The translations under genes were made by a program, and so were the position numbers. Below the pieces are notes generated by a model. The model saw nothing but the letters and a program-made list of their open reading frames with translations, was not told the origin of the DNA and did no database searches. Source: Thermotogota bacterium (lineage in GTDB: Bacteria > Thermotogota > Thermotogae > MWEM01). From it: 64,000 nucleotides of DNA. Where the stretch lies: positions 42,063-106,062 of the forward strand of contig DAOPKN010000005.1 of the NCBI GenBank assembly GCA_035391225.1, in the 5' to 3' direction. Each line of letters begins with the position of its first letter. Within the stretch, counting starts at the first letter, position 1. Below are positions 6,205 through 62,686 of the stretch, piece by piece.

Positions 6205-6221
6205 GTTGCCTCCAACGGGTG

Positions 6222-10656: not shown

Positions 10657-11263
10657 TCTCTTCCACTCCGCGAAGCATGGTTTCAAAGGAGAGGCTGGCG
10701 AACTCCGACCGATCCAACACGTGTTCGTGAAGGAACGGCACGTGGACAAACCCGCTCAGGGTGTGGGCGAAGCCCGGTGTAGTGGGGGAAAGGACGTGTC
10801 GGGATAGGTGTAATCCGAGGTACATCACGTAGTTGCAAAGGTAGGTCCCCGCGCTGTTGGAAAGAACCGCGGGGACCTTTTTCTCGTGAAGGCGTTGCAG
10901 TAACGGGCGAATGGGAAGCGTGGAGAAGTACGCCGCCGGACCTCCGGGAACGATGGGTTCATCGCGGAAGTGGCTTCCGTCGTTGTCCGGGATGCGCGTG
11001 TCCAACACGTTGAGGGCAACGCGTTCCAGCGTGATGTGACGGGCGCGTGCGCTGAGGCCAACGCTCACCAGCACATGGGGTTGCACCTCGTGGAGCAACG
11101 CGCCAAACCCTTCCCGGTTTTTTTCCACGGAAACGGGGAGGATGCGTCCCATTACCTGCCAGTTTTCCACCTGCAACCCGTCAAGCGCTGCGATCAGGTC
11201 ACAAGATGGGTTGACCTTTTCCTTTCCAAAGGGTTCGAAACCCGTTACCAGCAACCGGTGCAT
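10613..11263 (-). CDS. pcp: Pyroglutamyl-peptidase I (pyrrolidone-carboxylate peptidase)
   Basis: LVTGFEPFG N-terminal motif. Catalytic Cys context SNSAGTYLCNYVMY. His in GFVHVPF. Start trimmed to MHRLLVTGF (ORF track 11311). 3' end overlaps the convergent MFS gene by 44 nt. Confidence 0.8.
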   Translation of the reverse strand: MHRLLVTGFEPFGKEKVNPSCDLIAALDGLQVENWQVMGRILPVSVEKNREGFGALLHEVQPHVLVSVGLSARARHITLERVALNVLDTRIPDNDGSHFRDEPIVPGGPAAYFSTLPIRPLLQRLHEKKVPAVLSNSAGTYLCNYVMYLGLHLSRHVLSPTTPGFAHTLSGFVHVPFLHEHVLDRSEFASLSFETMLRGVEEIIRGSISHFSQLSS

Positions 11264-11267
11264 CTGC

Positions 11268-11642
11268 TCAGAAATTGCTGAAAGCTTCGCCCGAAACGGA
11301 AATGGTTCCACGCCCCACGAACGGAACGAAGTAGGTGATCACGAAATCCCAAATGGTGAAGCCGTAGCTGATCTCCAGGTTCTTGGCAAAGGCGCCTCCC
11401 CGGGCAAATACCTCCGGTCCAATCATTTTGTCCAGGTTCTCGTGGGGCCGGGACATCGGGAAAAGGATGGGATCGATAATGAACCACAATTCCTGGGATG
11501 CTTCGAACTTCCCGACAGGTGTTCCGATAATGTTGGGGAAGTACCCCAGGTTTCCATCCGCCGTTTTGAAGAGCATGGAACAAGAACTGAACACCAGCAC
11601 GAGAGCAACGAACACGAGCAACAGCACGAACTTTTTCATCAA
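11268..11642 (-). CDS. Hypothetical lipoprotein (124 aa)
   Basis: Signal peptide ending in a lipobox-like VFSSC. No known domain recognised. Confidence 0.45.
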   Translation of the reverse strand: MMKKFVLLLVFVALVLVFSSCSMLFKTADGNLGYFPNIIGTPVGKFEASQELWFIIDPILFPMSRPHENLDKMIGPEVFARGGAFAKNLEISYGFTIWDFVITYFVPFVGRGTISVSGEAFSNF

Positions 11643-11651
11643 ACTCCCCCT

Positions 11652-12158
11652 TTATTTGGATGGTTCTTGCACTTGCAACGGGTAGATACCCCCACGGTAT
11701 GCAAGGGAAAGGGTGGGGTGCAGCATTCGATTTACCCCCACGGCAACTTGCACGCCACCGATGGGAGAAACGGGAATCATCATGCCGGCCTCCACGAAGA
11801 GATCCCAGTGCTCCAATCCCAGATTGCCCAGCAGGGAAATATACCCCCCAAACTGGATTCCGTAGGATTCGTTCAGGGTTTCGAACACCACCCATTCCAC
11901 TCCCGCAGAAACGTAGGGCTTTTTGAAGGACATGATCCCCATGCCGCCGCGAAAACGAAACGGGGAAAACCAGGAAGGACCGTACACCGCGTTGAAGGAG
12001 AGATCCACGATGTCCCGTTTCTTATCCACTTCCGGCAAAAGGAAAAAATCGGGTTTCACTTCCAATATCAACCCAATAAAATCTTCACTAAAGGTCCGAG
12101 CGGAAACCGAAACACACAAAAAACAGGCCGCCAGGCAAACCAGGCTTTTCCAGCGCAT
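11652..12158 (-). CDS. Hypothetical exported protein (168 aa), possibly beta-rich outer-membrane associated
   Basis: Signal peptide MRWKSLVCLAACFLCVSVSA. Alternating hydrophobic pattern. C-terminal aromatic residue region. Confidence 0.45.
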   Translation of the reverse strand: MRWKSLVCLAACFLCVSVSARTFSEDFIGLILEVKPDFFLLPEVDKKRDIVDLSFNAVYGPSWFSPFRFRGGMGIMSFKKPYVSAGVEWVVFETLNESYGIQFGGYISLLGNLGLEHWDLFVEAGMMIPVSPIGGVQVAVGVNRMLHPTLSLAYRGGIYPLQVQEPSK

Positions 12159-18130: not shown

Positions 18131-19381
18131 ATGGAATCTCCACCGAAGAAAGATGTGCAGTTCTACCGGTTTGCCGCCTACGGTTTCCTAAAGAATCTTC
18201 GCTTTTTCGAACCGTTCCTCGTGCTTTTCTTCCGCGACCAGGGTTTTTCCTTCTTGCAGATCGGCTTCTTCTTCTCCGTTCGTGAGGTGTCCACCAACCT
18301 TTTGGAAATTCCCACCGGGGTGGTGGCGGATCTTTTTGGAAGGCGCATCTCTATGGTACTTTCCATGGTGGGGTACCTGCTCTCTTTCGGCCTTTTCTTT
18401 TTCTTTCCCACTTTGGCCTGGATCTTCGTGGCCATGGTTTTCTTTGCCGTGGGGGAGGCCTTTCGCACGGGTACGCACAAGGCCATGATCTTGGAATACC
18501 TTCGGTTGAAAGGTTGGGGCAAGTGGAAAGCCAGCTACTACGGTTCGACCCGTGCGGCTTCCCAGCTGGGGTCCGCCGCGAACGCTCTCATCGCTGCGGG
18601 GCTCGTTTTCTTCTCGGGTTCCTACCGCATCGTTTTTGTTGCCTCCATGGTGCCCTACTTCTTGAACCTCCTCAACCTTGCTTCTTACCCTAAGGTCCTT
18701 GACGGCGAACGATCCCCAGGTAGCAGCCGGGCCACCTTGGGGCAATTCTTCCAGGTTTTCACCAATCCCCGGGCACTGCAAGGGCTATTGAACGGGGCCA
18801 CCTTCGATGCTTTTTTCGAGGTAGCGGGAAACTTTTTGCAGCCCATCTTGAAAAGCCTTGCACTCGCGTTGCCCGTTTTCCTTTTCTTGGAAGGGCAGCA
18901 GCGGGAAGCCATCGTGATCGGTGTCGCCTTCTTCGGGATTTACCTTGCAACCAGCCTGGCATCCGCACGAGCCGGGCACTTCCAGCAGAAGGTGGGATCC
19001 GCGGAAAAGGCACTCAACGCTACGTTCCTGTTGGGGGTTGCGTTGCTTACCTTTTCGGGTGTGTTCGTACTGTGGGGTTTTTCCATCGGGAGCGTGGCCG
19101 CTTTCTTTGGGTTGTACCTTTTGCACAACTTGCGCCGCCCTCTCACGGTTTCGTACGTAAGTGACCAGATCCACCATCGTACGATGGCAAGTGGACTCTC
19201 CGTGGAATCGAGCTTGAAAACTCTTCTGATGGCGATTTGTGCGCCCATTGCGGGTTGGGTGGCGGACCGTTTTGGAATCGGCTGGGCGCTGCTTTCCGGA
19301 GGCATCGTGCTGGGAGGCTTGTTTTTCGTGCTGCGCTTCACCAGGCCCTCATTCCCTCGAATCACAGGGGAAGAAGGGTAA
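18131..19381 (+). CDS. MFS transporter
   Basis: 12 TMs. Motif ADLFGRRISM. Confidence 0.75.
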   Translation: MESPPKKDVQFYRFAAYGFLKNLRFFEPFLVLFFRDQGFSFLQIGFFFSVREVSTNLLEIPTGVVADLFGRRISMVLSMVGYLLSFGLFFFFPTLAWIFVAMVFFAVGEAFRTGTHKAMILEYLRLKGWGKWKASYYGSTRAASQLGSAANALIAAGLVFFSGSYRIVFVASMVPYFLNLLNLASYPKVLDGERSPGSSRATLGQFFQVFTNPRALQGLLNGATFDAFFEVAGNFLQPILKSLALALPVFLFLEGQQREAIVIGVAFFGIYLATSLASARAGHFQQKVGSAEKALNATFLLGVALLTFSGVFVLWGFSIGSVAAFFGLYLLHNLRRPLTVSYVSDQIHHRTMASGLSVESSLKTLLMAICAPIAGWVADRFGIGWALLSGGIVLGGLFFVLRFTRPSFPRITGEEG

Positions 19382-19383
19382 CA

Positions 19384-20778
19384 ATGCCCACTTCTTCCCC
19401 GTGTAATGCCGTGGTGGTTCTTTCCTCTTTCTTTGACTTGGGATCCCTGGAAGCCTTCCTGCGAAACCTGCTTCTTCCACCCGCAACAACCCTTTTCGTG
19501 GCGCAACGCTTGGCACCCGATTTTCCCGGCTTACTGGAAAGGGTCATACAGCGGAGCAGCAAGTACCCCGTGCGTTTCCCTTTGCCAGGAGAGAAGGTTT
19601 TGGATGGGGTGGTCTACCCTTACCCCGTGGGGTCGCAAAATGGCGTGATGCTCAGCGGTGAATCCTTCCAGCGGCAGCTTCGTCCGGTCTTTTCCCTTTT
19701 CTTCCGTTCCTTGCTCGAGGCTGAAAGAAAGGTTGCACTGGTTGTCCTGGGTGGGTTGGGAAATGAGTTTCCGGGTATGGTCGATCTCCTTTCCTGGTGG
19801 GATGGGCCTTTGCTGGTGCAGGATCCTGCTTCCACGCCGTTTCGGGCTCTTCCCGTGCTGGTGCAGCAAAAGCGTTTCGTCCAGCGGATGCTTCCCCCGG
19901 ACCAACTGGGTAGCTCCTTGGAAGAGCTTTTCCCGGGGCACAACGGAACTGCTCCCCCCCCCTCTTCCGCTCGCGACGTGCACTTTGCTCCTGCCTTCCT
20001 TCCGCGCGTGTTTTCCGCCCTCCGGGAGCATACCGGAAGAAACCTGGATCGTTACCGGAAAAATACCATAGTGCGCAGAATCGAGCGGCGCATGATCCTG
20101 CTGGGGATTTCCCAGGCAGCAAGCTACGTGGAACTGCTGCAAGCCTCCGCGGAAGAAGCCAATTCGCTGTTGCACCACCTACAAATCCATGTGACCTCTT
20201 TTTTCCGTGATCCGGGGGCATTCGAGGCACTGGCACAGCAAGCCCTTCCGCTTTTGGGTCATGACTCTGGGAGCACGAAGCTGTGGGTCGCGGGTTGTTC
20301 CACTGGCCAAGAAGCGTTCAGCCTGGCAATGCTTTTCCAGGAGCGATGGGGGCCAGCCGCTTCGGAAAAAGTGCACATTGTTGCCAGCGATGTGGACCCT
20401 GCCTCGCTGCAGTTCGCACGGCAGGCCGTTTACGCAACGCAACAGTGCGAGGGAATTCCAACCCCTCTCTTGCAGCGATTCTTTCACAAGGTGGGAAACG
20501 GGTACCAACCCCGTAGCTTGTTGCGTGACATGGTGGAATTCAAAATGCACGATGTACTCGTGGATCCCCCCCTTCTCCACGTGGACCTGGTGAGTTGCCG
20601 CAACCTGTTGATCTACCTGGAACCCTCCCTCCAGCAGGAAGTACTCTCGCTTTTCCATTTCTCCCTTCGTCCTGGTGGCTTGCTGTTCCTCGGGAAGAGC
20701 GAATCAACGCGGAAAATGGCTACCTACTTCCATCCACTTGTTCCACGATGGAAAATTTTCCGCCGCAAAAAAAAGTAA
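19384..20778 (+). CDS. CheB-like (apparently degenerate) methylesterase domain fused to CheR-type MCP methyltransferase
   Basis: ATG at 19384 (3 nt after the MFS stop). C-terminal CheR motifs LWVAGCSTGQEAFSLAMLF and CRNLLIYL. N-terminal ~190 aa aligns in outline to CheB_methylest but lacks the GASTGG catalytic-Ser motif. ORF track start 19237 is an upstream extension. Confidence 0.7.
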   Translation: MPTSSPCNAVVVLSSFFDLGSLEAFLRNLLLPPATTLFVAQRLAPDFPGLLERVIQRSSKYPVRFPLPGEKVLDGVVYPYPVGSQNGVMLSGESFQRQLRPVFSLFFRSLLEAERKVALVVLGGLGNEFPGMVDLLSWWDGPLLVQDPASTPFRALPVLVQQKRFVQRMLPPDQLGSSLEELFPGHNGTAPPPSSARDVHFAPAFLPRVFSALREHTGRNLDRYRKNTIVRRIERRMILLGISQAASYVELLQASAEEANSLLHHLQIHVTSFFRDPGAFEALAQQALPLLGHDSGSTKLWVAGCSTGQEAFSLAMLFQERWGPAASEKVHIVASDVDPASLQFARQAVYATQQCEGIPTPLLQRFFHKVGNGYQPRSLLRDMVEFKMHDVLVDPPLLHVDLVSCRNLLIYLEPSLQQEVLSLFHFSLRPGGLLFLGKSESTRKMATYFHPLVPRWKIFRRKKK

Positions 20779-20823: not shown

Positions 20824-21975
20824 TTAGCGCGAAAGCCACCCGTCCACGTTGTTCCATACCACGCGGGACCTGGCGTCAAAGGGATGGCCATCCCAAAGGC
20901 ACATCATGGGGACCTTCCCTTCTTCCAATGTTCCGTAGCTTTCCTCCAGCTGCAGGATTTTCGCAGGGTTGATGGTGAGCGATTCGAGCATGGCCTTCTC
21001 CGAGGCACCGTATTGCACTCCCAGGCCAGCCTGGATGCGCAGCACCTCGGCGGGGAAAACCGGGTGATCGCTCATGCAGCCAAAAAGGATACCGGCTTTC
21101 TCTGCGGCACCGTAGGTGCGGTAGGTCATCTCGCGCAATTCCACCTTGGGGCGGCTTCCCATGTATGGTCCGAGAAAAACCGGGATCTCGTTCTGCTTGA
21201 GCTCGTCGGCCACCTTGATCAGCTCGGTTGCGTGTTCGATCACGATGTTGATGTCGAATTCCTTCTTGATACGAATGGCGGTCAGCATATCTTCCGCGCG
21301 GTGGCAGTGGATGCGTGCAGGGATTTCTTTTTCCAGTACGAGTTGGGCAACTTCCATCTTCAGGTCAGTTTCGCTGAACGGTTTGCCTTCCTTTTCGGCT
21401 TTTTCTTTCTTCTGCATGTAGTTCAACCCGTCAAAGAAGAACTTGCGCATCACCGCGGCTGTTCCCATGCGGGTCACCGGCATTTTCTTGTATTCCTGGT
21501 ACACGCGCTTGGGGTTTTCCCCGGTGGCCATCTTCAACCCGCAGTCCGCTCGGATCACCTTGTCTTCCAGCAAGTTGGAACGGGTGTACTTGGCGATGAA
21601 TCCCAGCCCCCCCACTGGGTTGGCACTCCCGGGAAGCACGCAGTACATCATCACGCCACCGCGGGCGGACTCCTCGATCCCCATGTCCGTCGGGACGAAG
21701 GCATCCATGCAGCGCACGTCGGCCGTGACGGGGTCAGAATACTCGTTCACGTCGTCGTACTCCCAGCCGTAGCCTTCGGGCATCAAGCCGATGTGGGAAT
21801 GCCCGTCGATGAAACCAGGCATCAGGAGCCCGCCCTTTCCATCCAACGTTTCCTCTGCAGTTCCCTGCACCTTGGGCCCCACTTCGAGGATGCTGCTTTC
21901 GTCGAAGAGAAGTTCGCCTTCGAAGGGTTCGGAAGAAATGGGAAAGATCTTGACGTTCGTAATGCGTTTCTTCAT
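20824..21975 (-). CDS. Amidohydrolase-superfamily metal-dependent hydrolase, paralog 3 of a tandem triplet
   Basis: N-terminal small beta domain then GFIDGHSHIG (HxH metal motif). Later CHRAED and EHATE motifs shared with the two upstream paralogs. Confidence 0.75.
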   Translation of the reverse strand: MKKRITNVKIFPISSEPFEGELLFDESSILEVGPKVQGTAEETLDGKGGLLMPGFIDGHSHIGLMPEGYGWEYDDVNEYSDPVTADVRCMDAFVPTDMGIEESARGGVMMYCVLPGSANPVGGLGFIAKYTRSNLLEDKVIRADCGLKMATGENPKRVYQEYKKMPVTRMGTAAVMRKFFFDGLNYMQKKEKAEKEGKPFSETDLKMEVAQLVLEKEIPARIHCHRAEDMLTAIRIKKEFDINIVIEHATELIKVADELKQNEIPVFLGPYMGSRPKVELREMTYRTYGAAEKAGILFGCMSDHPVFPAEVLRIQAGLGVQYGASEKAMLESLTINPAKILQLEESYGTLEEGKVPMMCLWDGHPFDARSRVVWNNVDGWLSR

Positions 21976-23129
21976 AGTACCAACTCCTGTTTTGAAGAAT
22001 CAAAGGCCACCTTGCCGTTGACCAGCGTGAACAGCAACCGGTGGGTGGGATCGAGCACGTCCCGGTCACACACCAGCAGGTCCCCGTCCTTTCCCTTTTC
22101 GATGCTTCCAATGCGGTCTGCTAATCCCAGGTTGCGCGCGGGATTGATCGTGATGGCCCGCAACGCCAGGTCTCCTGAAAGCCCGTGGTGCATGGCCAGC
22201 CCCGCTTGGATCGGAAGGTTAAGGATGGGAATCACGGGGTCGTCGGTGATCAGGCTGATATCGGAAATGCCCGCCTTTTCCAGGATCCCCGGAGTGCGAA
22301 GCGTGCGGTTGTTCACCTCGATCTTGTAGCGCGCGGTGAACATGGGTCCCACCGCGAGCTCCACGCCTTTTTCCGCCAACAGATCCGCGATGAGGTGGGA
22401 CTCGGTGGCATGCTCGAAGCTCAGCTGGAAACCAAACTCGTCGCGGATGCGCAAGATCGTGAGCATGTCATCCGCACGGTGGGCATGCACGTGTGCCTTG
22501 AACTCCCCATCCAAGACCTGCAATAGAGCCTCGTTCTTGGGATCGAATCCTTTCTCGTCTTTCTTCTTGCGGTAAGCGATCGCGTCAGAGAAAGCTTTTC
22601 GGATCACCGCCGCTGTTCCCATGCGGGTCATGATCTTCTTGGATTCCTGGTGGGTTTTCTTGGGATTTTCCCCCATGGCCATCTTCATGCCGGAGCGTTC
22701 CAGCAGCACGCGTTCTTGGTAGGGCACGTCCAAGTCGTTTTTGAGGGTGACGCCGAACCCCCCGATGGGATTCGCACTGCCAGGGAAGATGTTGAGGGTG
22801 GTGACCCCGGCGCTGATCGCGTAGCGGAAGCCTTCGTCGAAAGGCTTCACCCCGTCCATCGCGAGCAACTGCGGCGTGACGGGATCGGACCACTCGTTCA
22901 CGTCGTTGTCGCTTACCTGGTTGGTCTTCTCCCCGTGGATCCCGATGTGGCAATGCTCTTCCACCAATCCCGGGAACACGTGGAGACCAGAAGCCTCGAT
23001 CAATGTATCTGCCTTCACTTGGATGCCGGGTTCCACCCCGACGATTTTCCCGTCCTCCACGAGGATGTCACCCACGAAAGAAGGAGACGTCACCGGGTGG
23101 ATGGTTCCGTTTTTAATGAGCGTCTTCAT
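21972..23129 (-). CDS. Amidohydrolase-superfamily metal-dependent hydrolase, paralog 2 (start trimmed to MKTLIKNG)
   Basis: GLVEEHCHIG HxH motif. TRMGTAAVIRKAF and HVHAHRADDMLTILRIRDEFGFQLSFEHATE colinear with paralogs 1 and 3. RBS GGGAGGTG upstream of the trimmed start. 17-nt overlap with the upstream gene. Confidence 0.75.
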   Translation of the reverse strand: MKTLIKNGTIHPVTSPSFVGDILVEDGKIVGVEPGIQVKADTLIEASGLHVFPGLVEEHCHIGIHGEKTNQVSDNDVNEWSDPVTPQLLAMDGVKPFDEGFRYAISAGVTTLNIFPGSANPIGGFGVTLKNDLDVPYQERVLLERSGMKMAMGENPKKTHQESKKIMTRMGTAAVIRKAFSDAIAYRKKKDEKGFDPKNEALLQVLDGEFKAHVHAHRADDMLTILRIRDEFGFQLSFEHATESHLIADLLAEKGVELAVGPMFTARYKIEVNNRTLRTPGILEKAGISDISLITDDPVIPILNLPIQAGLAMHHGLSGDLALRAITINPARNLGLADRIGSIEKGKDGDLLVCDRDVLDPTHRLLFTLVNGKVAFDSSKQELVL

Positions 23130-24285
23130 CCCATTCACCTCCCACGACTTTCCCCTGGATGTAGGTGTTTTCCACCACGGATAACACGTCGAAAAAACCA
23201 GACGAAAGGACCATGAAGTCTGCGTCCAATCCAGCGGAGAGCGAACCCACACGATCCTCGATTCCCAGGATCTTGGCGGCATTTCGGGTGAGCAGGTCCA
23301 CGATTTGGGCTTCCGAGAGCTCCAACCTGGCCAGTATCCAGGGTTGCACGCGGATCAGGGACAGCGGGATCACGGGTGCGTCGGTCATTAGGGAAAGAAG
23401 CAATCCCTGGTCCTGCAAGATCTGCACGCTGTGGAACGTAAGGTCGTAGGTTTGGAACGAGCGTGCACACACGTTGAGTGGGCCAAGTATTGCCGGGACC
23501 CCAAGCGAACGGGCGAACTCCGGGTTCGTGTGGAGCGCCGTGGCGTGGTCGAGCACGTACTCGAAACCGAACTCGGAGGAAATGCGTGCGATGGTTTCGA
23601 TGTCTTCCATGTTGGCCACGTGGATGCGGGCCATCGCCTTGTGGTCCAGCAGCTCCTGGAGCAACCGCGTTTCCAGGTCATTTCCCCTTTCTTCTTCGGG
23701 TTTCTTGGCCTGGTTCTGGGCTTTCACCAGTTGTTCCCGAAGCAAGGCCCCCACGGCCATGCGCGTAAAAGGAGATTTCTTCTGCCCTTGCCAGAACCAG
23801 GATGGGTTCCGCCCGAATGCCATTTTCACCAGTTTCTTGGGTGTGGGAACGACCATCTTGTCCACGTTCTTCCCCGCGGTCTTGATCACAACGCCTTCGC
23901 CACCAATCACGTTGCTCGAGCCAGGTAACACGCAAACCGTGGTCACCCCGGCGTTTCTCGCACTGCGCAACCCCGCGTCCAGCGGGTTGATTGCGTCGAT
24001 GGCGCGCACAGATGGCGTGGCGGGAGAACTGTATTCGTTGGTATCGTTTCCCGCTTCCCATCCCGTCATTTCCTCGAAAATCCCCACGTGGGTGTGGGGG
24101 TCGATCATTCCCGGGTACACGTACTTGCCCTCCAGGTCAATTACCCGGGTGTCCCCTGAAGGTTGTAGATCCGTGCCAAAAGAAACGAAGCGCCCGTTTT
24201 CCACGCGAAAATCCAGTCGTTGCAGGCGGTCGTCCTTCCAAACTTGGCCACCTTTGAAAAGTTCCAAGTGTACCACCCCTTTCAA
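23113..24285 (-). CDS. Amidohydrolase-superfamily metal-dependent hydrolase, paralog 1
   Basis: GMIDPHTHVG HxH motif. Colinear with the other two (TRMAVGALLREQL, ARIHVANMEDIETIARISSEFGFEYVLDHATA). TTG/GTG start region. Confidence 0.7.
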   Translation of the reverse strand: MKGVVHLELFKGGQVWKDDRLQRLDFRVENGRFVSFGTDLQPSGDTRVIDLEGKYVYPGMIDPHTHVGIFEEMTGWEAGNDTNEYSSPATPSVRAIDAINPLDAGLRSARNAGVTTVCVLPGSSNVIGGEGVVIKTAGKNVDKMVVPTPKKLVKMAFGRNPSWFWQGQKKSPFTRMAVGALLREQLVKAQNQAKKPEEERGNDLETRLLQELLDHKAMARIHVANMEDIETIARISSEFGFEYVLDHATALHTNPEFARSLGVPAILGPLNVCARSFQTYDLTFHSVQILQDQGLLLSLMTDAPVIPLSLIRVQPWILARLELSEAQIVDLLTRNAAKILGIEDRVGSLSAGLDADFMVLSSGFFDVLSVVENTYIQGKVVGGEWDEDAH

Positions 24286-24376
24286 AATCCAATTCTATCA
24301 TAAAATACGCTTTCCGAAGAAAAAGTGCGCGCCAAATGTGTTACAATCCCTGTATCTGGACGAAGGGGGAAAGGGT

Positions 24377-25834
24377 ATGAAAAAAAACGAGAAGGTTTCC
24401 CTGGCAACCAAGCTTTTCTTCGGGGCCGGGGACATTTTTGGCGGGGGCGCTTTCAACATCGTGAACTTCTTCTACGCCATTTTTTTAACCGATGTTGTTA
24501 AGCTTAACATGGTGTACGTGGCACCGATCTTCTTGATCGGAAAGGTCTGGGATGCGGTGACTGACCCGTTCATGGGGCAGATTTCCGACCATACGCGCAC
24601 GCGTTGGGGACGTCGAAGACCCTACTTCCTTGCGGGTATCGGGTTGATCTTCCTCTCCTTTTTCCTGCTTTGGTTCCCGGTGGATTTCGCGGGGCAGGGT
24701 GGGCGATTCGCGTACGTTCTCGGGGCCTACCTTTTCTTCAATACCGTGGTCACCCTGGTGATGGTGCCCTACCAGGCCATGACCGCGGAAATTTCGCTGG
24801 ACTACCACGAACGCACGTCCATCAACTCCATCCGCCTCATCTTCTCGTTGGGGTCCTCCTTGGTGTGCGCGCTGTTCCCCATGATGATCGTGAACCGCTT
24901 TTCCCCGGACGTGCGCACCGGCTACATCGTGATGGCGCTGGTGTTCGGCGTGTTGTTTGCGCTTCCCTGGATCGGGGTTTTTGCCGTGAGCAAGGAGCGC
25001 AAGGAATTCCAGGGGGGCTCACGCGGTTTTTCGCTCAAGCAAATGATCGTGCAACCGTTGCAGATCAAGTGTTTCCGCCAGTTGCTCTGGATGTTCATGG
25101 CCGCGTACCTCTCCATGGACATCGTGTCGATGATTTTTGCCTACTACATGAAATACTACCTGGTGAAACCCAACCTTTTGCCGCTGGTGCTGGGCACGCT
25201 GCTGGCGGTGGAAATCCTGGCCATTCCGCTGTATGCAATGATCGCCAAGAGAACTTCGAAGACCCGCGCCTACATCATCGGCTCGCTGGTGTGGTCGGTG
25301 GGCGGGGTGATGGTTTTCTTCCTGCCGGCAACGGCTCCTTCCTGGACGATCTTCGCGATGGCGGCGCTGATCGGTGCAGGCGTGAGCGCCGCGGCTGTGA
25401 TGCCCCATACCATTTTTGGTGACGTCACCGACGTGGGAGAACTGGCCTTTGGCGAACGCCGCGAAGGCAACTTCAGCGGATTGATTACCTTTGCCCGCAA
25501 GCTGGCCTCCGGGGTTGCTATCGCGCTTGTGACAGCCATTCTGGGCTGGATGGGGTACCTCAACCCGGTGGAAACCGTGGAAAACGGTGTGCGCACCGTA
25601 ACCGAACAGGTGCAACCTTCCGGGGTACTGCTCGCCATTCGTATCGTATTGGCGTTCGTTCCCATTGCCCTGCTCGTGGTGGGGATTTGGGCCGCTTCCC
25701 GTTTCCCGCTGGATTCCAAGACACACGGCGAACTCATTGCTTTTTTGGGCAAGCAACGCCAAAAGGGCAAGGGGAAAAAGACCGATCCCTCCTCTGAGGC
25801 GGAGCGAGAAGCCTTGGTTCGAAAACTGGTGTAA
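24377..25834 (+). CDS. GPH-family (glycoside-pentoside-hexuronide:cation symporter, MFS_2) transporter; candidate sulfosugar/glycoside importer
   Basis: ATG at 24377 after GAAGGGGGAAAGGG. GPH-like N-terminus ...DPFMGQISDHTRTRWGRRRPY. 12 TMs. The 786-aa ORF-track frame is an upstream read-through. Confidence 0.75.
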   Translation: MKKNEKVSLATKLFFGAGDIFGGGAFNIVNFFYAIFLTDVVKLNMVYVAPIFLIGKVWDAVTDPFMGQISDHTRTRWGRRRPYFLAGIGLIFLSFFLLWFPVDFAGQGGRFAYVLGAYLFFNTVVTLVMVPYQAMTAEISLDYHERTSINSIRLIFSLGSSLVCALFPMMIVNRFSPDVRTGYIVMALVFGVLFALPWIGVFAVSKERKEFQGGSRGFSLKQMIVQPLQIKCFRQLLWMFMAAYLSMDIVSMIFAYYMKYYLVKPNLLPLVLGTLLAVEILAIPLYAMIAKRTSKTRAYIIGSLVWSVGGVMVFFLPATAPSWTIFAMAALIGAGVSAAAVMPHTIFGDVTDVGELAFGERREGNFSGLITFARKLASGVAIALVTAILGWMGYLNPVETVENGVRTVTEQVQPSGVLLAIRIVLAFVPIALLVVGIWAASRFPLDSKTHGELIAFLGKQRQKGKGKKTDPSSEAEREALVRKLV

Positions 25835-25839
25835 CGGGG

Positions 25840-26760
25840 ATGACACTTACCCTGGTAGTTTCGCTTACCGTTCTTTCGCTGGTGTGGAGCAGCTACTACA
25901 CCAGCGCGGGGATGGTTGCTGGCAGCATTTCTCCGTTTCTACTGGGGATCTTGATTCGCTTGGTTACCCTGGTGTTCTTTTCGATTGTCTTCGGGGTACA
26001 GCGCAAGCTCAAGCGGTTGCTTGCCGTGCGTGGAGTCCTGGGGGGGCTGATCCTGGTGGGGCTGCTGGGTTTCTCGCTGGACATCACGGCGTTCCTGGGG
26101 CTGCGCTTTTCCAGCGCCACCGACGGGTCCATCCTGCTAAAAATGGACTTGATCTTTGCCAACATCCTCACCAGCCTGATCTGGCGGAAACACCTGGGTT
26201 GGCAAAACTGGTCGTTCACCGGTGTTGCCCTGGTGGGGGTGTTCTGCGTGTTGGGCATCTCCCCCGCGAACCTGGAACCCGGGTCTTGGGGTAACCTGTT
26301 TTTCATCCTGAGCGCGTTTTTCATCGCACTCAACGCCTTCGTGATCCAGCGGTTGCAGCACCATCGCAGCAACCCGGTCCCGGATGGGGTGATTGCCTTT
26401 TACAACAATGCCGTGACGTTGCTTTTCTTTTCGGCAACTTGGGTGCTCTTCGACCGGGGAAGCGGGGGTCCCGTGAGCGGGTGGCAACCGGGTATCGTGG
26501 TTCCCGTGCTCGTGGCAGGGATTTGCCAGTCGCTGCTCTACCTGTTGTACTACTACAACCTGCGCCGACTGCCGGTCTGGGTGGTGAAGCTGTTTTTGCT
26601 GCAAATTCCCGTTTTCACAGCCCTCTTCGAGTGGGGACTGAGCGGGAGTGCCCCGACACGCCTGCAGTGGTTGGGTATGGGCTTAATTCTTTCCAGCTCA
26701 GCGGGCATTCTGCTGTCGGGGAAGAAGAAAGGATTCGTGGGAAACGTTTCCGGGAGGTGA
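25840..26760 (+). CDS. EamA/DMT-superfamily transporter (10 TM drug/metabolite exporter)
   Basis: Two EamA-like 5-TM repeats. 306 aa. Sits between the importer and the Fe-ADH. Confidence 0.65.
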   Translation: MTLTLVVSLTVLSLVWSSYYTSAGMVAGSISPFLLGILIRLVTLVFFSIVFGVQRKLKRLLAVRGVLGGLILVGLLGFSLDITAFLGLRFSSATDGSILLKMDLIFANILTSLIWRKHLGWQNWSFTGVALVGVFCVLGISPANLEPGSWGNLFFILSAFFIALNAFVIQRLQHHRSNPVPDGVIAFYNNAVTLLFFSATWVLFDRGSGGPVSGWQPGIVVPVLVAGICQSLLYLLYYYNLRRLPVWVVKLFLLQIPVFTALFEWGLSGSAPTRLQWLGMGLILSSSAGILLSGKKKGFVGNVSGR

Positions 26761-26766
26761 TTTGTT

Positions 26767-27909
26767 TTGCATCATGGTTCTTTTCCAGCTACACCCAAAA
26801 CATTCGATTGGTGGATACCCACCACGATTCACTTTGGTGGGGGGTTGGGTGGGGCTTCGCGGGCACTGGCAAAAAAGAACGTTCTGGTGGTCTCCGACGC
26901 GGTTCTGAAAAAGCTGGGTGCCGTACAAAAACTGGTGGACTCCTTGCAAGGGGTCGCGGGTGTCCACTTTTTCTGTGACGTGCAACCCAACCCCACGCTG
27001 GGCAACGTGGAAGAAGCCACGCAGCTCGCGCGCGCCAACGGGGTAGATGCCGTGGTCGGTTTCGGCGGGGGGAGTGCGCTGGACGTGGCCAAAGCGGTGG
27101 CCTGCATGGTGGGAGAAGAAGGCCCATTCTCCGAGTTCTGGAACGGGGAACGCTCCTTTTCCAACAGGCGGCCATTGCTGGTGGCTATTCCCACCACGGC
27201 CGGAACGGGGAGCGAGGTGACCTCGGTGGGGGTGTATTCGGCGCCGGAACTACAGGCGAAGAAGGCAATCGGTTCGCCCCATTTCTGGCCGGATTTCGCG
27301 GTGGTAGACCCGTATTGGACGCTGTCGGTTCCCCCGGGGGGCACGGTGTCCACCGGTTTGGATGCGTTTTCCCATGCTCTGGAGGCCTTTTGGGCGTCCT
27401 CTTCACAGCCGCTGAGCCAGGCGTTTGCCCGCGAGGCCATGCGCACCCTTTTCGGAAACTTGGAGACCGCGTTCCAAGATGGTTCCAACGAGCAAGCTCG
27501 GGCTGCGTTGAGCCGGGCCTCGCTGATGGCGGGTATGGCCTTTTCCCAGACCCGCACCACGCTTCTGCATGCCATCAGCTACCCCCTCACGGCATGGTAC
27601 GGCGTGCCCCACGGCCTTGCCTGCATTGTTACCCTGCGTCCCGTGCTGGAGTGGGTGCACGAAACACGCCCGGAAGTGTGCGAGGAGGTGGCCCGGGCGG
27701 TTGGTTTCCCGACCTACGGGGAGTTCCGCGCACCCTTCTTTGAATGGCTGGACCGGTTGGGTGTTCCGAAACGGCTCCAGGAGCTGGGAATCCCCGAAAC
27801 GGACATCCCACGCCTGGCAGAGGAAAGCTTGAAACCCCCCATCGTGCAGCTGACCCCGCGCGTTCCCTCGCGGGAGCAAATGCAGCAACTGTTCCGATCG
27901 ATTTTCTAA
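26767..27909 (+). CDS. Iron-containing (group III) alcohol dehydrogenase; candidate aldehyde reductase
   Basis: TTG start 9 nt after GGGAGG. GFGGGSALDVAKAVA dinucleotide-fold motif. Metal-binding His motifs HALEAF, LLHAISYPL. Confidence 0.8.
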   Translation: MHHGSFPATPKTFDWWIPTTIHFGGGLGGASRALAKKNVLVVSDAVLKKLGAVQKLVDSLQGVAGVHFFCDVQPNPTLGNVEEATQLARANGVDAVVGFGGGSALDVAKAVACMVGEEGPFSEFWNGERSFSNRRPLLVAIPTTAGTGSEVTSVGVYSAPELQAKKAIGSPHFWPDFAVVDPYWTLSVPPGGTVSTGLDAFSHALEAFWASSSQPLSQAFAREAMRTLFGNLETAFQDGSNEQARAALSRASLMAGMAFSQTRTTLLHAISYPLTAWYGVPHGLACIVTLRPVLEWVHETRPEVCEEVARAVGFPTYGEFRAPFFEWLDRLGVPKRLQELGIPETDIPRLAEESLKPPIVQLTPRVPSREQMQQLFRSIF

Positions 27910-27940
27910 AAACATCACATACGAATTGGAGTGAGAAAAC

Positions 27941-28768
27941 ATGGATCCAAACAGGATAGCATTCCTGCAAGAAAAGGCGACGGACATCCGTTGCCTGGTG
28001 CTGGAATCCATTGGAAAGCTTGGCGTGGGACACATCGGAGGCTCTCTTTCCATCGTGGATGCCCTCACGGTGCTCTACCACGAAATCATGCGCCTGGACC
28101 CGTCCAACCCGAAATGGGAGGAGCGCGACCGCTTCGTCCTTTCGAAAGGGCACGGTGGCCCAGGGGTGTACGCGGTGCTTGCCGACAAGGGCTATTTCCC
28201 CGTGGAATGGCTGGACACGTTGAATGGCCCGGATACGTTGCTCCCTTCCCACTGCGACCGGTTGCGCACCCCCGGTATCGACATGACAGCGGGTTCTTTG
28301 GGACAAGGTTTGTCCGCTGCCGCGGGCATGGCTCTTGCCGCGAAACGTGACGGAAAAGGTGTGCGGGTGTACGCCATTATCGGGGATGGCGAAAGCCAAG
28401 AAGGGCAGGTATGGGAAGCGGCGATGTTTGCCCGGCAGTACCAGCTGGACAACTTGACGGCTTTCACCGATTACAACCACCAACAAATCGATGGAACCAT
28501 TTCCGAGGTCAACGAACTCGAACCGCTGGCCGACAAGTGGCGGAGCTTTGGTTGGAACGTGATGGAAATCGACGGCCATGACATCGAGGCGATCGAAGCG
28601 GCCATTCGCTTGGGGCAAAAGCAGAAAGGCAAGCCCAGCATGATCATCCTGCACACCATCAAGGCGAAGGGGGCCTATTTTTGCGAGGGAAAAACAGCGT
28701 CGCACAACATGCCCATCAGCGAAGAACAATGGAAGACGGCGGTACAAAAGCTGCGGGGGGAGGAATGA
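27941..28768 (+). CDS. Transketolase, N-terminal (TPP-binding PP domain) subunit
   Basis: GHIGGSLSIVDALTVLYH. IGDGESQEGQVWEAAMFA (TPP/Mg GDG motif). Confidence 0.85.
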   Translation: MDPNRIAFLQEKATDIRCLVLESIGKLGVGHIGGSLSIVDALTVLYHEIMRLDPSNPKWEERDRFVLSKGHGGPGVYAVLADKGYFPVEWLDTLNGPDTLLPSHCDRLRTPGIDMTAGSLGQGLSAAAGMALAAKRDGKGVRVYAIIGDGESQEGQVWEAAMFARQYQLDNLTAFTDYNHQQIDGTISEVNELEPLADKWRSFGWNVMEIDGHDIEAIEAAIRLGQKQKGKPSMIILHTIKAKGAYFCEGKTASHNMPISEEQWKTAVQKLRGEE

Positions 28769-28770
28769 AC

Positions 28771-29718
28771 ATGGCGAGCAATCCACAACTGCGACAGGTG
28801 TACACCCAGTGGCTGGTGGAAAAAGCCGCGCAAGATCCGAGGTTGTTCGTGGTGGAAGCGGACCTGATGGGTGCCTCCGGAACAAAACCTTTCCGGGAAG
28901 CCTACCCCGAACGTTTCGTGGACACGGGTGTGGCAGAAGCCAACATGATGGGCGTGGCCGCTGGACTGGCCAACATGGGGAAAATCCCGTTCGCGCACTC
29001 TTTCACTCCCTTTGCGACCCGTAGGGCGTTCGACCAGGTGACCATTTCCATCGCCTACGCGGACTTGAACGTCAAGATCGGTGGAACGGATCCCGGCGTG
29101 ACCGCGGAGCTCAACGGTGGCACGCACATGAGCTTCGAAGATGCAGGACTCATGCGTGGGCTGGCCAACATGATCGTGGTGGAACCTGCAGACCAAGTAC
29201 AGCTCCTCGCGTTGCTCCCCCAGGTGTTCGAACACGAGGGCCCGGTGTACATGCGGCTACACCGCAAGAACACCGAGGTGTTCGTGGACGAAGGCATGCC
29301 TTTCACACTCGGGAAGATCGCTACGTTGCGCGCGGGAACCGACGTAACGTTGGTGTGCAGCGGGTTGATGATTCCGGGAACGCTGGAGGCAGCACGCATC
29401 TTGGCAGGGAAGGGCATTTCTGCACGGGTATTGAACATGCACACGCTCAAACCCGTGGACGAAACCACCCTGGTGGAAGCGGCGCGGCAAACCGGTGCCA
29501 TGGTAACCGTGGAAAATCACAGTGTTCTCAACGGATGGGGAAGCGCAGTGTGCGAAACCCTTGCGGCCTTTTGCCCTGTGCCCGTGCTGCGTATCGGGGT
29601 GCAGGACCATTTCGGCGAGGTGGGAAGTACCGATTTCCTGCTGGAGAAATACCACATGACCCCGCCGTACATCGTGGAAGCCGCGCAACAGGCCATCGCG
29701 CTCAAGGCAAAGCGCTGA
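28771..29718 (+). CDS. Transketolase, C-terminal (Pyr + TKC domain) subunit
   Basis: ATG at 28771, 7 nt after GGGGGGAGG. GVAEANMMGVAAGLA motif. 3 nt after the N-subunit stop. Confidence 0.85.
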   Translation: MASNPQLRQVYTQWLVEKAAQDPRLFVVEADLMGASGTKPFREAYPERFVDTGVAEANMMGVAAGLANMGKIPFAHSFTPFATRRAFDQVTISIAYADLNVKIGGTDPGVTAELNGGTHMSFEDAGLMRGLANMIVVEPADQVQLLALLPQVFEHEGPVYMRLHRKNTEVFVDEGMPFTLGKIATLRAGTDVTLVCSGLMIPGTLEAARILAGKGISARVLNMHTLKPVDETTLVEAARQTGAMVTVENHSVLNGWGSAVCETLAAFCPVPVLRIGVQDHFGEVGSTDFLLEKYHMTPPYIVEAAQQAIALKAKR

Positions 29719-29725
29719 AGGGACG

Positions 29726-31822
29726 GTGAACGCCATGGGTTTCTTCCTGGTGAATGGGGATATGTTCGCTGTGCGGGACAGCGAAGACGAGGCACAGCAA
29801 TGGTTGCTGGAGCATTCCCTGGAATCGCCCGCATTCTTCGTGGGAGTGGGGGATGCCACCATCAGCATGCGCAAGGGGAATTTCACCATCGACCCCGCAT
29901 TGGAATGCCGCCTGCCCCTTCGGCACTGGCAGGTTCTCGAACAAGGTCCAGGTGTTCTGGGTATTCGATTCTTGCACGAGGGAGAGGTTGCGTTGCAGGC
30001 ACGCTTCCAGTTGGAAAAGGGTAGGGTACGCGTGGAGCTCTCCGCCCTTTCCAAGCGCTGGAATCGCTTTTGGATGCGGGTTCCTTCCTCCCCGGAAGAG
30101 AAGGTGTTTGGCTGCGGCGAGCAGTTCAGTTTCTTGAACCTGCGCGGCAAAAGGGTGCCGTTGTGGACCAGCGAACAGGGGGTGGGAAGGAACAAGAATA
30201 CCCTGGTGACCTTTTTCGCCGATGCGCTGGATGGTGCCGGGGGCGATTGGCACACCACGTACTTTCCGCAGCCCACGTTCGTGACTTCCACGCGAAAGTG
30301 GCTGCATTCTTCGGGTAGCGCGCAAGCCTACCTCGATTTCCGCAATCCGCGCTGGTTCGAACTCGAATGCTGGGAAATCCCCCCGGTAGTGTGGTTGGGT
30401 TCTTCCCCAAGTTGGGAAGCGTATTGCACGAGCATCACATCCCTCGTGGGAAAGCAACCACCGCTTGCCGAATGGAGCATGGATGGAGCTTGGCTCGGGT
30501 TGCAAGGTGGAACCGACGTCGTGCAGCGAAAGATCGAGGCCGCCCAGTCACACGGGGTGCAGGTTTGTGGGCTCTGGATCCAGGACTGGGAGGGGAAACG
30601 CATCACCGCTTTTGGCAAGCAGTTGATGTGGAACTGGGTGTTTGACCCCTCCATGTACCCCGAACTGCCAGAGCGTATCCGCGAATGGAAGGAACAGGGA
30701 ATCCGCGTGCTGGGGTACATCAACCCATTCCTCGCACTGGAAGGAAGCCTGTATCGCGAAGCATCCGAGAAAGGATACCTGGTGCAAAAACCCGGTGGGG
30801 GGGAGTACCACGTGGTGGTGACTACTTTCCCTGCCGCCATGCTGGATTTGACAAACCCGGAAGCATTGGAGTGGATCCGTAGGGTGATCCGGGAGAACAT
30901 GATTGGCATTGGTTTGTCGGGATGGATGTGCGATTACGGGGAATATTTGCCCACCGACGCGGTGCTCTTTTCGGGGGAAAGCGCGCACTCCTTCCACAAC
31001 CGCTACCCCGCTGTTTGGGCACAGACCAATTGGCAGGCCGTTTGCGAGGCGGGCAAGCAAGAACAAATCGTTTTCTTTACCCGGGCGGGGTTTACAGGTA
31101 TCCAGGCACACACCCCCCTGGTTTGGGCGGGAGACCAGACGGTCAACTGGGACAAGGACGACGGGTTGCCTTCCACCATCCCCGCGGCTCTGTCGCTTGG
31201 CCTGTGCGGAATCGGTGTGCATCACTCCGACCTGGGAGGTTTCACCACGCTGGACATCCCGGTGCAGGTGGAAGGGAAACACTACGAAGGTCTCGGGCGC
31301 GTTGCCCGCAGCAAGGAATTGTTCCTGCGCTGGTTGGAGATGAGTGCCTTCACCCCCGTGATGCGCACGCACGAAGGCAACTGGCCGCATCTGAATTGGC
31401 AATTCGACTCCGACGAACCAACGTTGCTCGCGTACGCCCGCTTTTCCCAGATCCACGCGCACCTCAAACCCTACTTCCAGGAACTGCTTCGCGTGTACCA
31501 GCAGACAGGCCTTCCCCTGATGCGCCCCATGTTCTTTTCCAGCGAGGAGGAGCAAGCCTGGGAAGTGCAAGACCAATTCCTGTTGGGAGAGGAGTTGCTC
31601 GTCGCACCCGTGGTGGAGAGGCAAGCAACGGAACGAGAAGTGTTCTTCCCCACCGGCAGCTGGGTGCACCTGTTCACGGAAGAAGAGTTCGGGCCTGGGA
31701 AGAGCAAGGTCGCGGCCCCGTTGGGAACCCCCCCGGTTTTCTTCCGGCAGGGAGGATGTTTCGCATCCCTCTTTCAAGCCCTTTCGAAACGGCAAACACA
31801 ACCAAAGGAGGAAAAAGGATGA
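29726..31822 (+). CDS. Glycoside hydrolase family 31 alpha-glycosidase (YicI/YihQ-like; candidate sulfoquinovosidase)
   Basis: 698 aa. WIQDWEG. Candidate nucleophile GWMCDYGE (Asp ~403) and acid/base WAGDQT (Asp ~470). The 67-residue spacing equals that remembered for E. coli YihQ and YicI. Confidence 0.8.
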   Translation: MNAMGFFLVNGDMFAVRDSEDEAQQWLLEHSLESPAFFVGVGDATISMRKGNFTIDPALECRLPLRHWQVLEQGPGVLGIRFLHEGEVALQARFQLEKGRVRVELSALSKRWNRFWMRVPSSPEEKVFGCGEQFSFLNLRGKRVPLWTSEQGVGRNKNTLVTFFADALDGAGGDWHTTYFPQPTFVTSTRKWLHSSGSAQAYLDFRNPRWFELECWEIPPVVWLGSSPSWEAYCTSITSLVGKQPPLAEWSMDGAWLGLQGGTDVVQRKIEAAQSHGVQVCGLWIQDWEGKRITAFGKQLMWNWVFDPSMYPELPERIREWKEQGIRVLGYINPFLALEGSLYREASEKGYLVQKPGGGEYHVVVTTFPAAMLDLTNPEALEWIRRVIRENMIGIGLSGWMCDYGEYLPTDAVLFSGESAHSFHNRYPAVWAQTNWQAVCEAGKQEQIVFFTRAGFTGIQAHTPLVWAGDQTVNWDKDDGLPSTIPAALSLGLCGIGVHHSDLGGFTTLDIPVQVEGKHYEGLGRVARSKELFLRWLEMSAFTPVMRTHEGNWPHLNWQFDSDEPTLLAYARFSQIHAHLKPYFQELLRVYQQTGLPLMRPMFFSSEEEQAWEVQDQFLLGEELLVAPVVERQATEREVFFPTGSWVHLFTEEEFGPGKSKVAAPLGTPPVFFRQGGCFASLFQALSKRQTQPKEEKG

Positions 31823-32295
31823 AAAAGATCGCCATCGGTTCGGATAAGTCCGGCTTTCCTTTGAAGGAAGCCTTGAAAGAATACCTGGTATCCCAGGGTT
31901 TCGAGGTACAAGACCTGGGCATGCAGAACATGGAGGATTTCCAGGCGTACTACCAGGTAGCGCCCAAGGTTGCGCAGAAGGTACAAAGCGGTGAGGTGCA
32001 ACGTGGGGTGCTATGCTGCGGCACGGGCATGGGTATGGCCATCGTGGCCAACAAGTTCAAGGGAGTGTACGCCGCCGTGGTGGAAGGAAGCTACTGTGCC
32101 AAGATGGCCAAGGTCATCAACCGAGCCAACGTTCTCACCATGGGGGGATGGGTGGTGGCTCCCCAGCAGGGAATCGACATGCTGCAGCGATGGCTGGAAG
32201 CCTCGCCCGGTGAAGGATTTCCACCCGACCGCCAGGATTTTTTAGAAAACGCCTTTGGAAAAGTGCAGGAAATCGAAGAACAACAATTCAAGTAA
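31819..32295 (+). CDS. RpiB/LacA/LacB-family sugar(-phosphate) isomerase; candidate sulfosugar isomerase
   Basis: ATGA overlap with the GH31 stop. MKKIAIGSDKSGF...GVLCCGTGMGMAIVANKFKGVYAAVV matches the RpiB fold signature. The 457-aa ORF-track frame is an upstream extension. Confidence 0.8.
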   Translation: MKKIAIGSDKSGFPLKEALKEYLVSQGFEVQDLGMQNMEDFQAYYQVAPKVAQKVQSGEVQRGVLCCGTGMGMAIVANKFKGVYAAVVEGSYCAKMAKVINRANVLTMGGWVVAPQQGIDMLQRWLEASPGEGFPPDRQDFLENAFGKVQEIEEQQFK

Positions 32296-32317
32296 ACCCC
32301 CTTCCGGGGGTTTTTTT
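32294..32317 (+). terminator. Strong rho-independent terminator closing the transketolase/GH31/isomerase operon
   Basis: CCCCC-TTCC-GGGGG hairpin followed by T7, immediately after the isomerase stop. Confidence 0.85.
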
Positions 32318-32352
32318 ATGGTAGAATGGGAAAAATAGCGGGAGGGCATACG

Positions 32353-58568: not shown

Positions 58569-58774
58569 CCGGGGCACAACCCGAAAGTCCAGCACATGAG
58601 AAAACCGGGTCACTGCCGCGAAAAAGGGAGAAGGGATGCGGGAGCAAACTGGTATATACCAGAAACCTTCGAGAATCGCCCAACGGAAAACCTACGCGTG
58701 CCTAATGGGGATTGATCGCCTGTCGTTTCATGTGACCAAATTTGCAAATAAGCGGAAATCAATATATGATAAAA

Positions 58775-58801
58775 CCAGTGGTCTATACCGGAGGCCACTG
58801 G
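58775..58801 (+). promoter_or_regulatory. GntR/HutC-type operator (CCAGTGGTCTATACCGGAGGCCACTGG; core GGTCTATACC) overlapping the frlR-like promoter
   Basis: Core matches the HutC-subfamily consensus GT-N-TA-N-AC. Flanked by a 7-bp inverted repeat CCAGTGG/CCACTGG. 15 nt upstream of the GntR start codon. Confidence 0.55.
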
Positions 58802-58815
58802 GGAATGGAGGAGTC

Positions 58816-59550: not shown

Positions 59551-59584
59551 AAATTTTCCCCCTTTCCAGTTGAAGGAGAAACGA

Positions 59585-61728: not shown

Positions 61729-61796
61729 TTCGTTGAATTGCATCTTCTTCCCCGGGGTCGTCGTGGCCCCGGGGGAATTTTGAGTGGGGTTTTACA

Positions 61797-62669: not shown

Positions 62670-62686
62670 GACTACAGGTCGGGGGA

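Follow-up and report, generated by a model that had tools for sequence, protein, structure and literature searches.

The window analysed here comprises 64 kb of a contig from an uncultured Thermotogota bacterium. On the forward strand (24377-32295) it holds seven co-directional, coupled genes with reading frames that are all intact, which probably form an operon for the degradation of the plant sulfosugar sulfoquinovose via the transketolase-dependent (sulfo-TK) pathway. A summary is given in Table 1. The genes overlap by 4 nt at two junctions, namely between the two transketolase subunit genes (TK-N and TK-C) and between the GH31 and the RpiB-type gene, and the remaining intergenic gaps are, in order, 5, 6, 31 and 7 nt. 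For the GH31 gene a GTG start at 29726 was assumed; public gene calls take an ATG at 29735, resulting in 695 aa. The hairpin and T-run at the 3' end are the top-ranked terminator-like site of the region and are followed by a GGDEF gene. The operon is present at 99-100% identity in three independent assemblies (ENA ERZ795053, JGI 3300010349 and NCBI GCA_964594525.1). An earlier note on this DNA had described these seven genes, a strong terminator behind them and the lack of a sugar kinase within the operon. Open reading frame (ORF) coordinates, family matches and the terminator ranking bear this out. No kinase is found in or beside the operon and the nearest sugar kinase is a PfkB, located ~27 kb downstream in a separate GntR/ABC cluster. 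Hence a kinase just outside the operon, which the note had considered as a point against its own reading, is not at hand. Regulators were likewise not found in or beside the operon.

Table 1. Features of the putative sulfo-TK operon, in positions of the window.
Feature	Coordinates	Strand	Family match or remark
Possible extended -10 promoter element TGTGTTACAAT	24337-24347	+	read by eye from sequence
GPH/MFS_2 symporter	24377-25834	+	PF13347, E 4e-84
EamA/DMT permease	25840-26760	+	PF00892
Iron-type alcohol dehydrogenase (Fe-ADH)	26767-27909	+	TTG start; PF00465 + PF25137
Transketolase N-terminal (TPP-binding) subunit, SqwG-like (TK-N)	27941-28768	+	PF00456, E 3e-54
Transketolase C-terminal (pyrimidine-binding) subunit, SqwH-like (TK-C)	28765-29718	+	PF02779 + PF02780
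GH31 glycosidase, YihQ (sulfoquinovosidase) family	29726-31822	+	NCBIfam PRK10426
RpiB/LacAB-family isomerase, SqwI type	31819-32295	+	PF02502
Intrinsic terminator closing the operon	32294-32320	+	8-pair hairpin 32294-32313 (AAACCCCC-TTCC-GGGGGTTT), then T-run
TPP, thiamine pyrophosphate.

The sulfo-TK route in Clostridium sp. MSTE9 (Liu et al. 2021, covered by the reviews PMC9594981 and PMC12890257) consists of SqvD, SqwGH, SqwI, SqwF and an exporter and has been described for Clostridia, Spirochaetes and Thermotogae. It is thus a known pathway, also in Thermotogae, and the locus adds no new one. The protein names given in the earlier note are correct: the transketolase is SqwGH, the PF02502 isomerase SqwI and the Fe-ADH reductase SqwF (PMC9594981). 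Sulfoquinovose is converted to sulfofructose by the FucI-like SqvD, and SqwI is assigned to sulfoerythrose/sulfoerythrulose, although its activity has never been directly measured (PMC9594981). The window has the split TPP-dependent transketolase, the PF02502 isomerase, an Fe-ADH as a candidate SqwF, a presumed exporter and a YihQ-family sulfoquinovosidase in common with MSTE9, as well as the absence of a kinase and isethionate as the expected product. Unlike MSTE9, it exhibits no SqvD, no SqvB/DUF4867 and no regulator, and a GPH symporter takes the place of the ABC system for import.

The surroundings of related transketolases were surveyed by a scan of species-representative genomes with TK-C, whereby the 80 closest loci were counted. 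They span Clostridia, Izemoplasmatales, Erysipelotrichaceae, Spirochaetes and Thermotogae. A SqwI-type isomerase is present in 58 of these loci and directly downstream of TK-C in 47, followed in frequency by SqvD (40/80), Fe-ADH (34/80), EamA (25/80, in many of them directly 5' of the Fe-ADH) and a YihQ-type GH31 (24/80). A Caproiciproducens metagenome-assembled genome (MAG; L014) and Faecalicatena contorta (L031) are among them, and the EamA-ADH-TK-RpiB core recurs in both genera. For both, evidence for sulfoquinovose degradation via sulfo-TK comes from growth, metabolites, transcripts and proteomes (PMC13219744, PMC11659671). Their bifurcated sulfo-TK/transaldolase (TAL) clusters share EamA/DMT, Fe-ADH, TK-N, TK-C and the SqwI-type isomerase with the window, but differ by two transaldolases, DUF4867, SqvD and ABC import and often have no YihQ (PMC11659671, PMC13219744).

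The gene order of the window recurs in Fervidobacterium gondwanense and F. islandicum (L004, L012) and on the uncultured, Thermotogota-like contigs L173 and L177-L180. Identities to the window genes are 41-79% for L173, L177 and L179 and 34-68% for Fervidobacterium L004. Since an identical order is found in several other lineages at 34-79% amino-acid identity, the arrangement is not a matter of chance. In Fervidobacterium it reads MFS_2-EamA-ADH-TKN-TKC-GH31-...-RpiB, with an additional ABC transporter upstream; SqvD stands between GH31 and RpiB, and downstream a LacI regulator follows. The L173/L179/L180 contigs have the genes of the window in the same order and orientation, and so do L177/L178 apart from the GPH gene. 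In operons of the L173/L177/L179 type the identities are 63% for GPH, 63-65% for TK-N, 66-67% for TK-C, 51-52% for GH31, 74-79% for RpiB and 41-43% for the ADH.

By sequence, the GH31 protein is a member of the YihQ family. It scores 844.8 bits with the NCBIfam model PRK10426 (YihQ; cutoff 553), compared to 189 with the alpha-xylosidase model and 119 with MalA. Moreover the alignments with the sulfoquinovosidase structures 5aed (E. coli YihQ, E 6e-196), 8r56 (E 2e-209), 6pnr and 5ohy span the whole protein. NCBI names it 'alpha-glucosidase'; an alpha-glucosidase or alpha-xylosidase specificity, named in the earlier note as a finding that would speak against its reading, is disfavoured by these scores. 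The catalytic Asp pair (D403/D470, corresponding to E. coli D405/D472) is invariant across the alignment of 121 sequences, made up of the query and 120 database homologs. Q262, Q288 and W304 of E. coli YihQ are retained as well, and these as well as the full-length homology are also common to the Agrobacterium sulfoquinovosidase.

In contrast, the sulfonate-binding triad deviates. The published signature for sulfonate recognition by YihQ is Q/E-RWY (PMC12780224, PMC8006165), formed by Q288, R301, W304 and Y508. The window protein reads Q-Q-W-F at these positions, its triad being Q299-W302-F506 (R301Q, Y508F). It is further distinguished from E. coli YihQ by ~14 additional residues after F506 and by Arg143 at the position of P145. 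That the GH31 may lack the sulfonate-binding Arg had been noticed before as an oddity of this locus. The exchange is real, but Gln occupies this position in 76 of the 121 sequences and is found clade-wide. Phe in place of Y508 is less common (10/121), and the insertion occurs, among these 121, solely in the query and its identical database entry. The related contigs L173/L179/L180 and L177/L178 share the Q-type motif but keep the Tyr.

Q-type YihQ proteins are located in sulfo-EMP2 clusters (SqvD, PFK, class II aldolase) of Alicyclobacillus kakegawensis, Desulfurispora and L175 as well as in sulfo-TK clusters of Fervidobacterium, other Thermotogota and a Sphaerochaetaceae MAG; sulfo-TK clusters of other phyla hold R-type YihQ. 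The missing Arg is therefore a clade trait and no sign of another substrate. The occurrence of Q-type YihQ in sulfoglycolysis clusters means that the published R-W-Y motif is not universal in the family, which matters for marker surveys based on yihQ and for the understanding of sulfonate recognition. Residue 143 is basic in 86% of the Q-type and in 11% of the R-type sequences, and positions 335, 366, 371 and 577 switch along with R301Q as well. Arg143 may thus represent a relocated sulfonate ligand. As a side observation, a Peptidase_M24-family gene is conserved beside the Q-type YihQ in three sulfo-EMP2 clusters (L007:8784-9899, L175:10050-11168 and L176:6515-7633).

The isomerase matches the general RpiB/LacA/LacB model only. 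With the equivalog models for RpiB it stays below the cutoffs (TIGR01120: 118.8 vs 138.65; NF004051: 128.7 vs 135). Compared to the RpiB of C. thermocellum and T. maritima it keeps the catalytic Cys67 and Thr69, but His10 is replaced by Lys and His98 (C. thermocellum numbering) by Ile. An RpiB sensu stricto, which would have spoken against the earlier interpretation, is therefore not indicated by either the scores or the two exchanged His residues. The protein shows the clade signature GSDKSG...CGTG...(I/V)N.AN.L.MGGW and, at its C-terminus, an extension not seen in the matched part of the two RpiB structures. Every RpiB-like gene beside related transketolases shows the same features. Its nearest relatives, P0237 (79%) and P0240 (74%), are both encoded within sulfo-TK operons. 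With 79% compared to 41-52% for EamA, ADH and GH31 it is the best conserved protein of the cluster. At position 130 the lineage of the window has Pro where 117 of 119 relatives have Phe. Based on this transketolase-linked PF02502 protein's features, it is a candidate 4-deoxy-4-sulfoerythrose isomerase of the SqwI type.

The two subunits of the split TPP-dependent transketolase are encoded by adjacent, overlapping genes and are 56-68% identical to the transketolase subunits of sulfo-TK loci. TK-N shows 59-68% identity to the N subunits in these loci and keeps the GDG...N TPP motif. Among solved structures, TK-C is best matched by the split transketolase of Carboxydothermus (6yaj); its identities are 67% to the L173/L179 sequences, 59% to that of Caproiciproducens L014 and 56% to that of F. 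contorta L031. A phylogeny of the transketolase had been proposed as a check and was calculated for TK-C. The tree follows taxonomy and places the window sequence, on a long branch, together with stand-alone (L008/L009) and cluster-resident copies alike. As a means to separate sulfo-TK from housekeeping enzymes it was thus rejected. Because the nearest relatives include stand-alone copies, the transketolase sequence by itself is no proof of specificity. Split transketolases 55-65% identical to that of the window are also seen outside of sulfo clusters. In Petrotoga (L021:6798-15939) one sits with a distinct GH31, an alpha/beta hydrolase, an FGGY kinase and GlpA-like oxidoreductases, and in L009 (1363-3296) one stands alone beside HEAT-repeat and T2SS-F genes.

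Sulfoacetaldehyde is handled in sulfo-TK clusters either by SqwF, an Fe-ADH, or by SqwD together with SqwKL, and the pathway leads to isethionate or sulfoacetate besides xylulose-5-phosphate. The Fe-ADH of the window stays below every NCBIfam equivalog cutoff including that of the sulfoacetaldehyde reductase SarD (197 of 700 bits) and is thus generic by sequence. Its translation shows the metal-ligand Asp and His motifs, and the ADHs found in this position of sulfo-TK loci are 34-43% identical to it. It is a candidate for a SqwF-like sulfoacetaldehyde reductase. The EamA permease is the presumed exporter of isethionate; a drug/metabolite permease is likewise part of the sulfoquinovose-induced cluster of Faecalicatena (PMC11659671). 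The GPH symporter reaches 220.7 bits with TIGR00792 gph, slightly below the cutoff of 231. The GPH protein encoded at the equivalent place in L173/L179 shares 63% identity with it, and that of Fervidobacterium 54-55%. Presumably it imports sulfoquinovose or sulfoquinovosyl-glycerol.

A gene for the first isomerisation step is missing. Searches of the 64-kb window by tblastn with three divergent SqvD seed proteins gave no match, and neither did a hidden Markov model (HMM) of 116 SqvD sequences against all ORFs of at least 80 aa. The same HMM recovers SqvD in 40 of the 80 TK-C loci and in the five reference loci carrying it, at 173-669 bits. A sulfoquinovose isomerase of the SqvD/SftI type (FucI-like, PF02952) is hence not encoded in the window. 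Pfam annotation and seed searches moreover revealed no DUF4867 (SqvB), transaldolase, YihS-type or other sugar-isomerase domain in the 64 kb. The earlier note did not notice SqvD as the missing gene and let the single RpiB-type isomerase produce sulfofructose, whereas the published pathway has two isomerases and uses SqvD for that step.

The nearest relatives offer an explanation. The closest GH31 (P0002, 52%) and the isomerases P0237 and P0240 all derive from operons with the order ROK-SqvD-(GPH)-EamA-ADH-TKN-TKC-GH31-RpiB. All five nearest-relative contigs (L173, L177, L178, L179 and L180) carry or begin this operon, with the ROK regulator and SqvD directly 5' of the (GPH)-EamA-ADH-TK-GH31 block. 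The window has its last seven genes in the same order and a divergent amidohydrolase triplet in place of ROK-SqvD. In terms of gene content and order, the window operon is the usual nine-gene operon of the lineage (ROK, SqvD, GPH, EamA, Fe-ADH, TK-N, TK-C, YihQ and SqwI) minus its 5' pair. Since ROK-SqvD opens the operon in the nearest relatives, a single 5' rearrangement accounts for both the missing regulator and the missing SqvD. The lack of a transcription factor in or next to the operon, already pointed out in the earlier note, is thus real and part of the same event.

The position of SqvD varies among the relatives, as it is found 5' of GPH or, in Fervidobacterium, between GH31 and RpiB. 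Given this mobility, a relocation to another site in the genome is the simplest expectation, and an SqvD-type isomerase is most likely supplied in trans. A protein-database search with the SqvD of Fervidobacterium retrieved no match attributable to the organism of the window, which is a weak negative. A scan of JGI metagenome contigs for SqvD yielded 80 loci, none of them from sample 3300010349; as it is biased to SqvD of the Fervidobacterium type, this negative is weak, too. P0231 has matching source labels but was rejected as the SqvD locus of the organism, as it represents an unrelated PTS/GH42/Dak locus. L010 was dismissed as a second SqvD-less example because the contig begins inside the GPH gene and SqvD is located 5' of GPH in the nearest relatives.

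Family assignments and synteny in combination with the published pathway identify the operon of the window as a sulfo-TK cluster. We consider it likely that the locus is a sulfo-TK sulfoquinovose operon from which the 5' ROK-SqvD pair was removed. All steps are deduced from homology and synteny. The GPH symporter would import a sulfoquinovose glycoside from which the YihQ-type GH31 would release sulfoquinovose. Conversion to sulfofructose would be brought about by an enzyme from outside of the operon, most likely of the SqvD type and encoded elsewhere in the genome. The split transketolase would then transfer C1-C2 of sulfofructose to glyceraldehyde-3-phosphate, yielding xylulose-5-phosphate and sulfoerythrose. 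After isomerisation of sulfoerythrose to sulfoerythrulose by SqwI, a second transketolase round would yield sulfoacetaldehyde, which the Fe-ADH would reduce to isethionate for export by the EamA permease. A kinase is not needed because the sulfonate group takes the part of the phosphate. A sulfo-TK operon that makes and exports isethionate had been the proposal of the earlier note as well; its family assignments and synteny hold, and its assignment of the isomerase, which overlooked the SqvD step, does not.

Several observations weigh against this interpretation. Without any sugar isomerase for the first step in the 64 kb, the encoded pathway has a gap. Of the three residues published as binding the sulfonate in YihQ, two are exchanged (R301Q and Y508F). 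With their counterparts the ADH and the EamA permease share only 34-43% identity, and both substrates are putative. Stand-alone copies outside of sulfo clusters (L008, L009) are among the nearest TK-C sequences of the genome collection. Finally, the comparison with MSTE9 covers the published enzyme families of its pathway.

Alternatively, SqvD might have been lost from the whole genome, with the SqwI-type RpiB performing the isomerisation of both sulfoquinovose and sulfoerythrose. The result would be a minimal seven-gene pathway fed by a YihQ with a moved arginine (Q299/F506, Arg143 as candidate). We consider this scenario unlikely, as well as the idea of a single isomerase on which it is built. 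In the 64 kb SqvD is indeed absent, with the other seven genes uninterrupted and translationally coupled, and 12 of 35 SqwI loci with full flanks have no SqvD in the locus. The RpiB/LacAB family covers isomerases of C4, C5 and C6 sugar phosphates (NCBIfam matches to DerI, RpiB and LacAB), and the high conservation of SqwI as well as its never directly measured activity (PMC9594981) leave room for such a role. However, the SqwI of the window is 74-79% identical to proteins that co-occur with SqvD in one operon, and its sole lineage-specific change at a conserved position is F130P, which gives no sign of a new function. The varying position of SqvD moreover makes its relocation plausible. RpiB enzymes favour substrates whose hydroxyls at C2 and C3 point to one side, a preference that fits erythrose but not the gluco configuration. 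As a naturally SqvD-less and regulator-less operon, the locus represents a test case for whether SqwI also isomerises sulfoquinovose or another isomerase does so.

It is likewise improbable that the loss of ROK-SqvD left a crippled or repurposed remnant unable to start from sulfoquinovose, either decaying or serving ketose sulfosugars (sulfofructose, sulfoerythrulose) from neighbouring organisms. The operon is 5'-truncated in comparison to all nearest relatives and its regulator is gone, the GH31 combines the less common Y508F with its unique pocket insertion, and TK-C sits on a long branch. All this would be compatible with a remnant. On the other hand, with seven intact and coupled genes, outright decay is not evident. 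Stop codons that overlap start codons, a clean terminator, the identical operon in three independent assemblies and the retained catalytic residues of GH31, transketolase, ADH and isomerase speak against it as well, and the retained glycosidase argues that sulfoquinovose is still made intracellularly.

It is highly improbable that the transketolase belongs to a route for a sugar without a sulfonate group (D-apiose or another alpha-glucoside) and that the GH31 is an ordinary alpha-glucosidase or alpha-xylosidase: the exchanged Arg and Tyr of the sulfonate triad, the NCBI name of the GH31 and the split transketolases beside unrelated genes in other Thermotogota (Petrotoga L021, stand-alone L009) would agree with it, but the GH31 prefers the YihQ model by far over alpha-xylosidase and MalA, its Q-variant homologs sit in sulfo-EMP2 and sulfo-TK clusters, the nearest relatives have SqvD, no kinase is found within ~27 kb and a pair of reductase and exporter makes no sense for a neutral sugar. 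The D-apiose pathway (AptAB) was rejected on context alone, as no apulose kinase is present in or beside the operon; its dismissal in the earlier note is upheld on the same ground.

Some of the surveyed loci deviate from the sulfo-TK operon in their surroundings. The Oscillospiraceae-type loci L058, L069 and L087 combine the TK-SqwI core with an NMT1/TauA-like ABC system ~1-7 kb 5' of the transketolase and have no SqvD or YihQ within 10 kb. L069 and L087 additionally hold a Zn-ADH, EamA, Fe-ADH and two transaldolases. Possibly the three loci channel another sulfonated substrate into the same TK-SqwI core. In L177 and L178 (both 10756-12108), the closest sulfo-TK relative, a 450-aa PAF-acetylhydrolase/PETase-like alpha/beta hydrolase is encoded directly after the SqwI gene. 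A role as a lipase in the deacylation of the sulfolipid SQDG is conceivable.

Upstream of the operon a 91-nt spacer separates the GPH gene from three tandem amidohydrolase paralogs on the opposite strand (20824-24285, -). Within this spacer TGTGTTACAAT is located 30 nt 5' of the GPH start codon and represents a possible extended -10 promoter of the operon; a two-hexamer consensus scan found no promoter in the upstream region. A further extended -10-like element, TGATAGAAT, lies on the amidohydrolase side (~24290-24298, - strand). The amidohydrolase genes exhibit HxH metal motifs and overlapping starts. For the first of them the only close match is the Thermotoga maritima structure 3ooq with uncharacterised function, and homologs are not found in any other sulfo locus examined. 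The divergent adjacency described before is thus correct, while a link to the pathway was not found, and from its distribution we treat the triplet as an unrelated, lineage-specific neighbour.

Convergent with the triplet is a gene for a fused CheB methylesterase-CheR methyltransferase (19237-20778, +). The cluster with the PfkB kinase near the window end (58636-63529, +) is a separate sugar cluster consisting of GntR, PfkB and an ABC system with a substrate-binding protein and two permeases. At the other end of the window (4583-7298, -), whose genome bears the label Thermotogota, flagellar genes are located that encode FlgI of the P-ring, FlgH of the L-ring and the chaperone FlgA.

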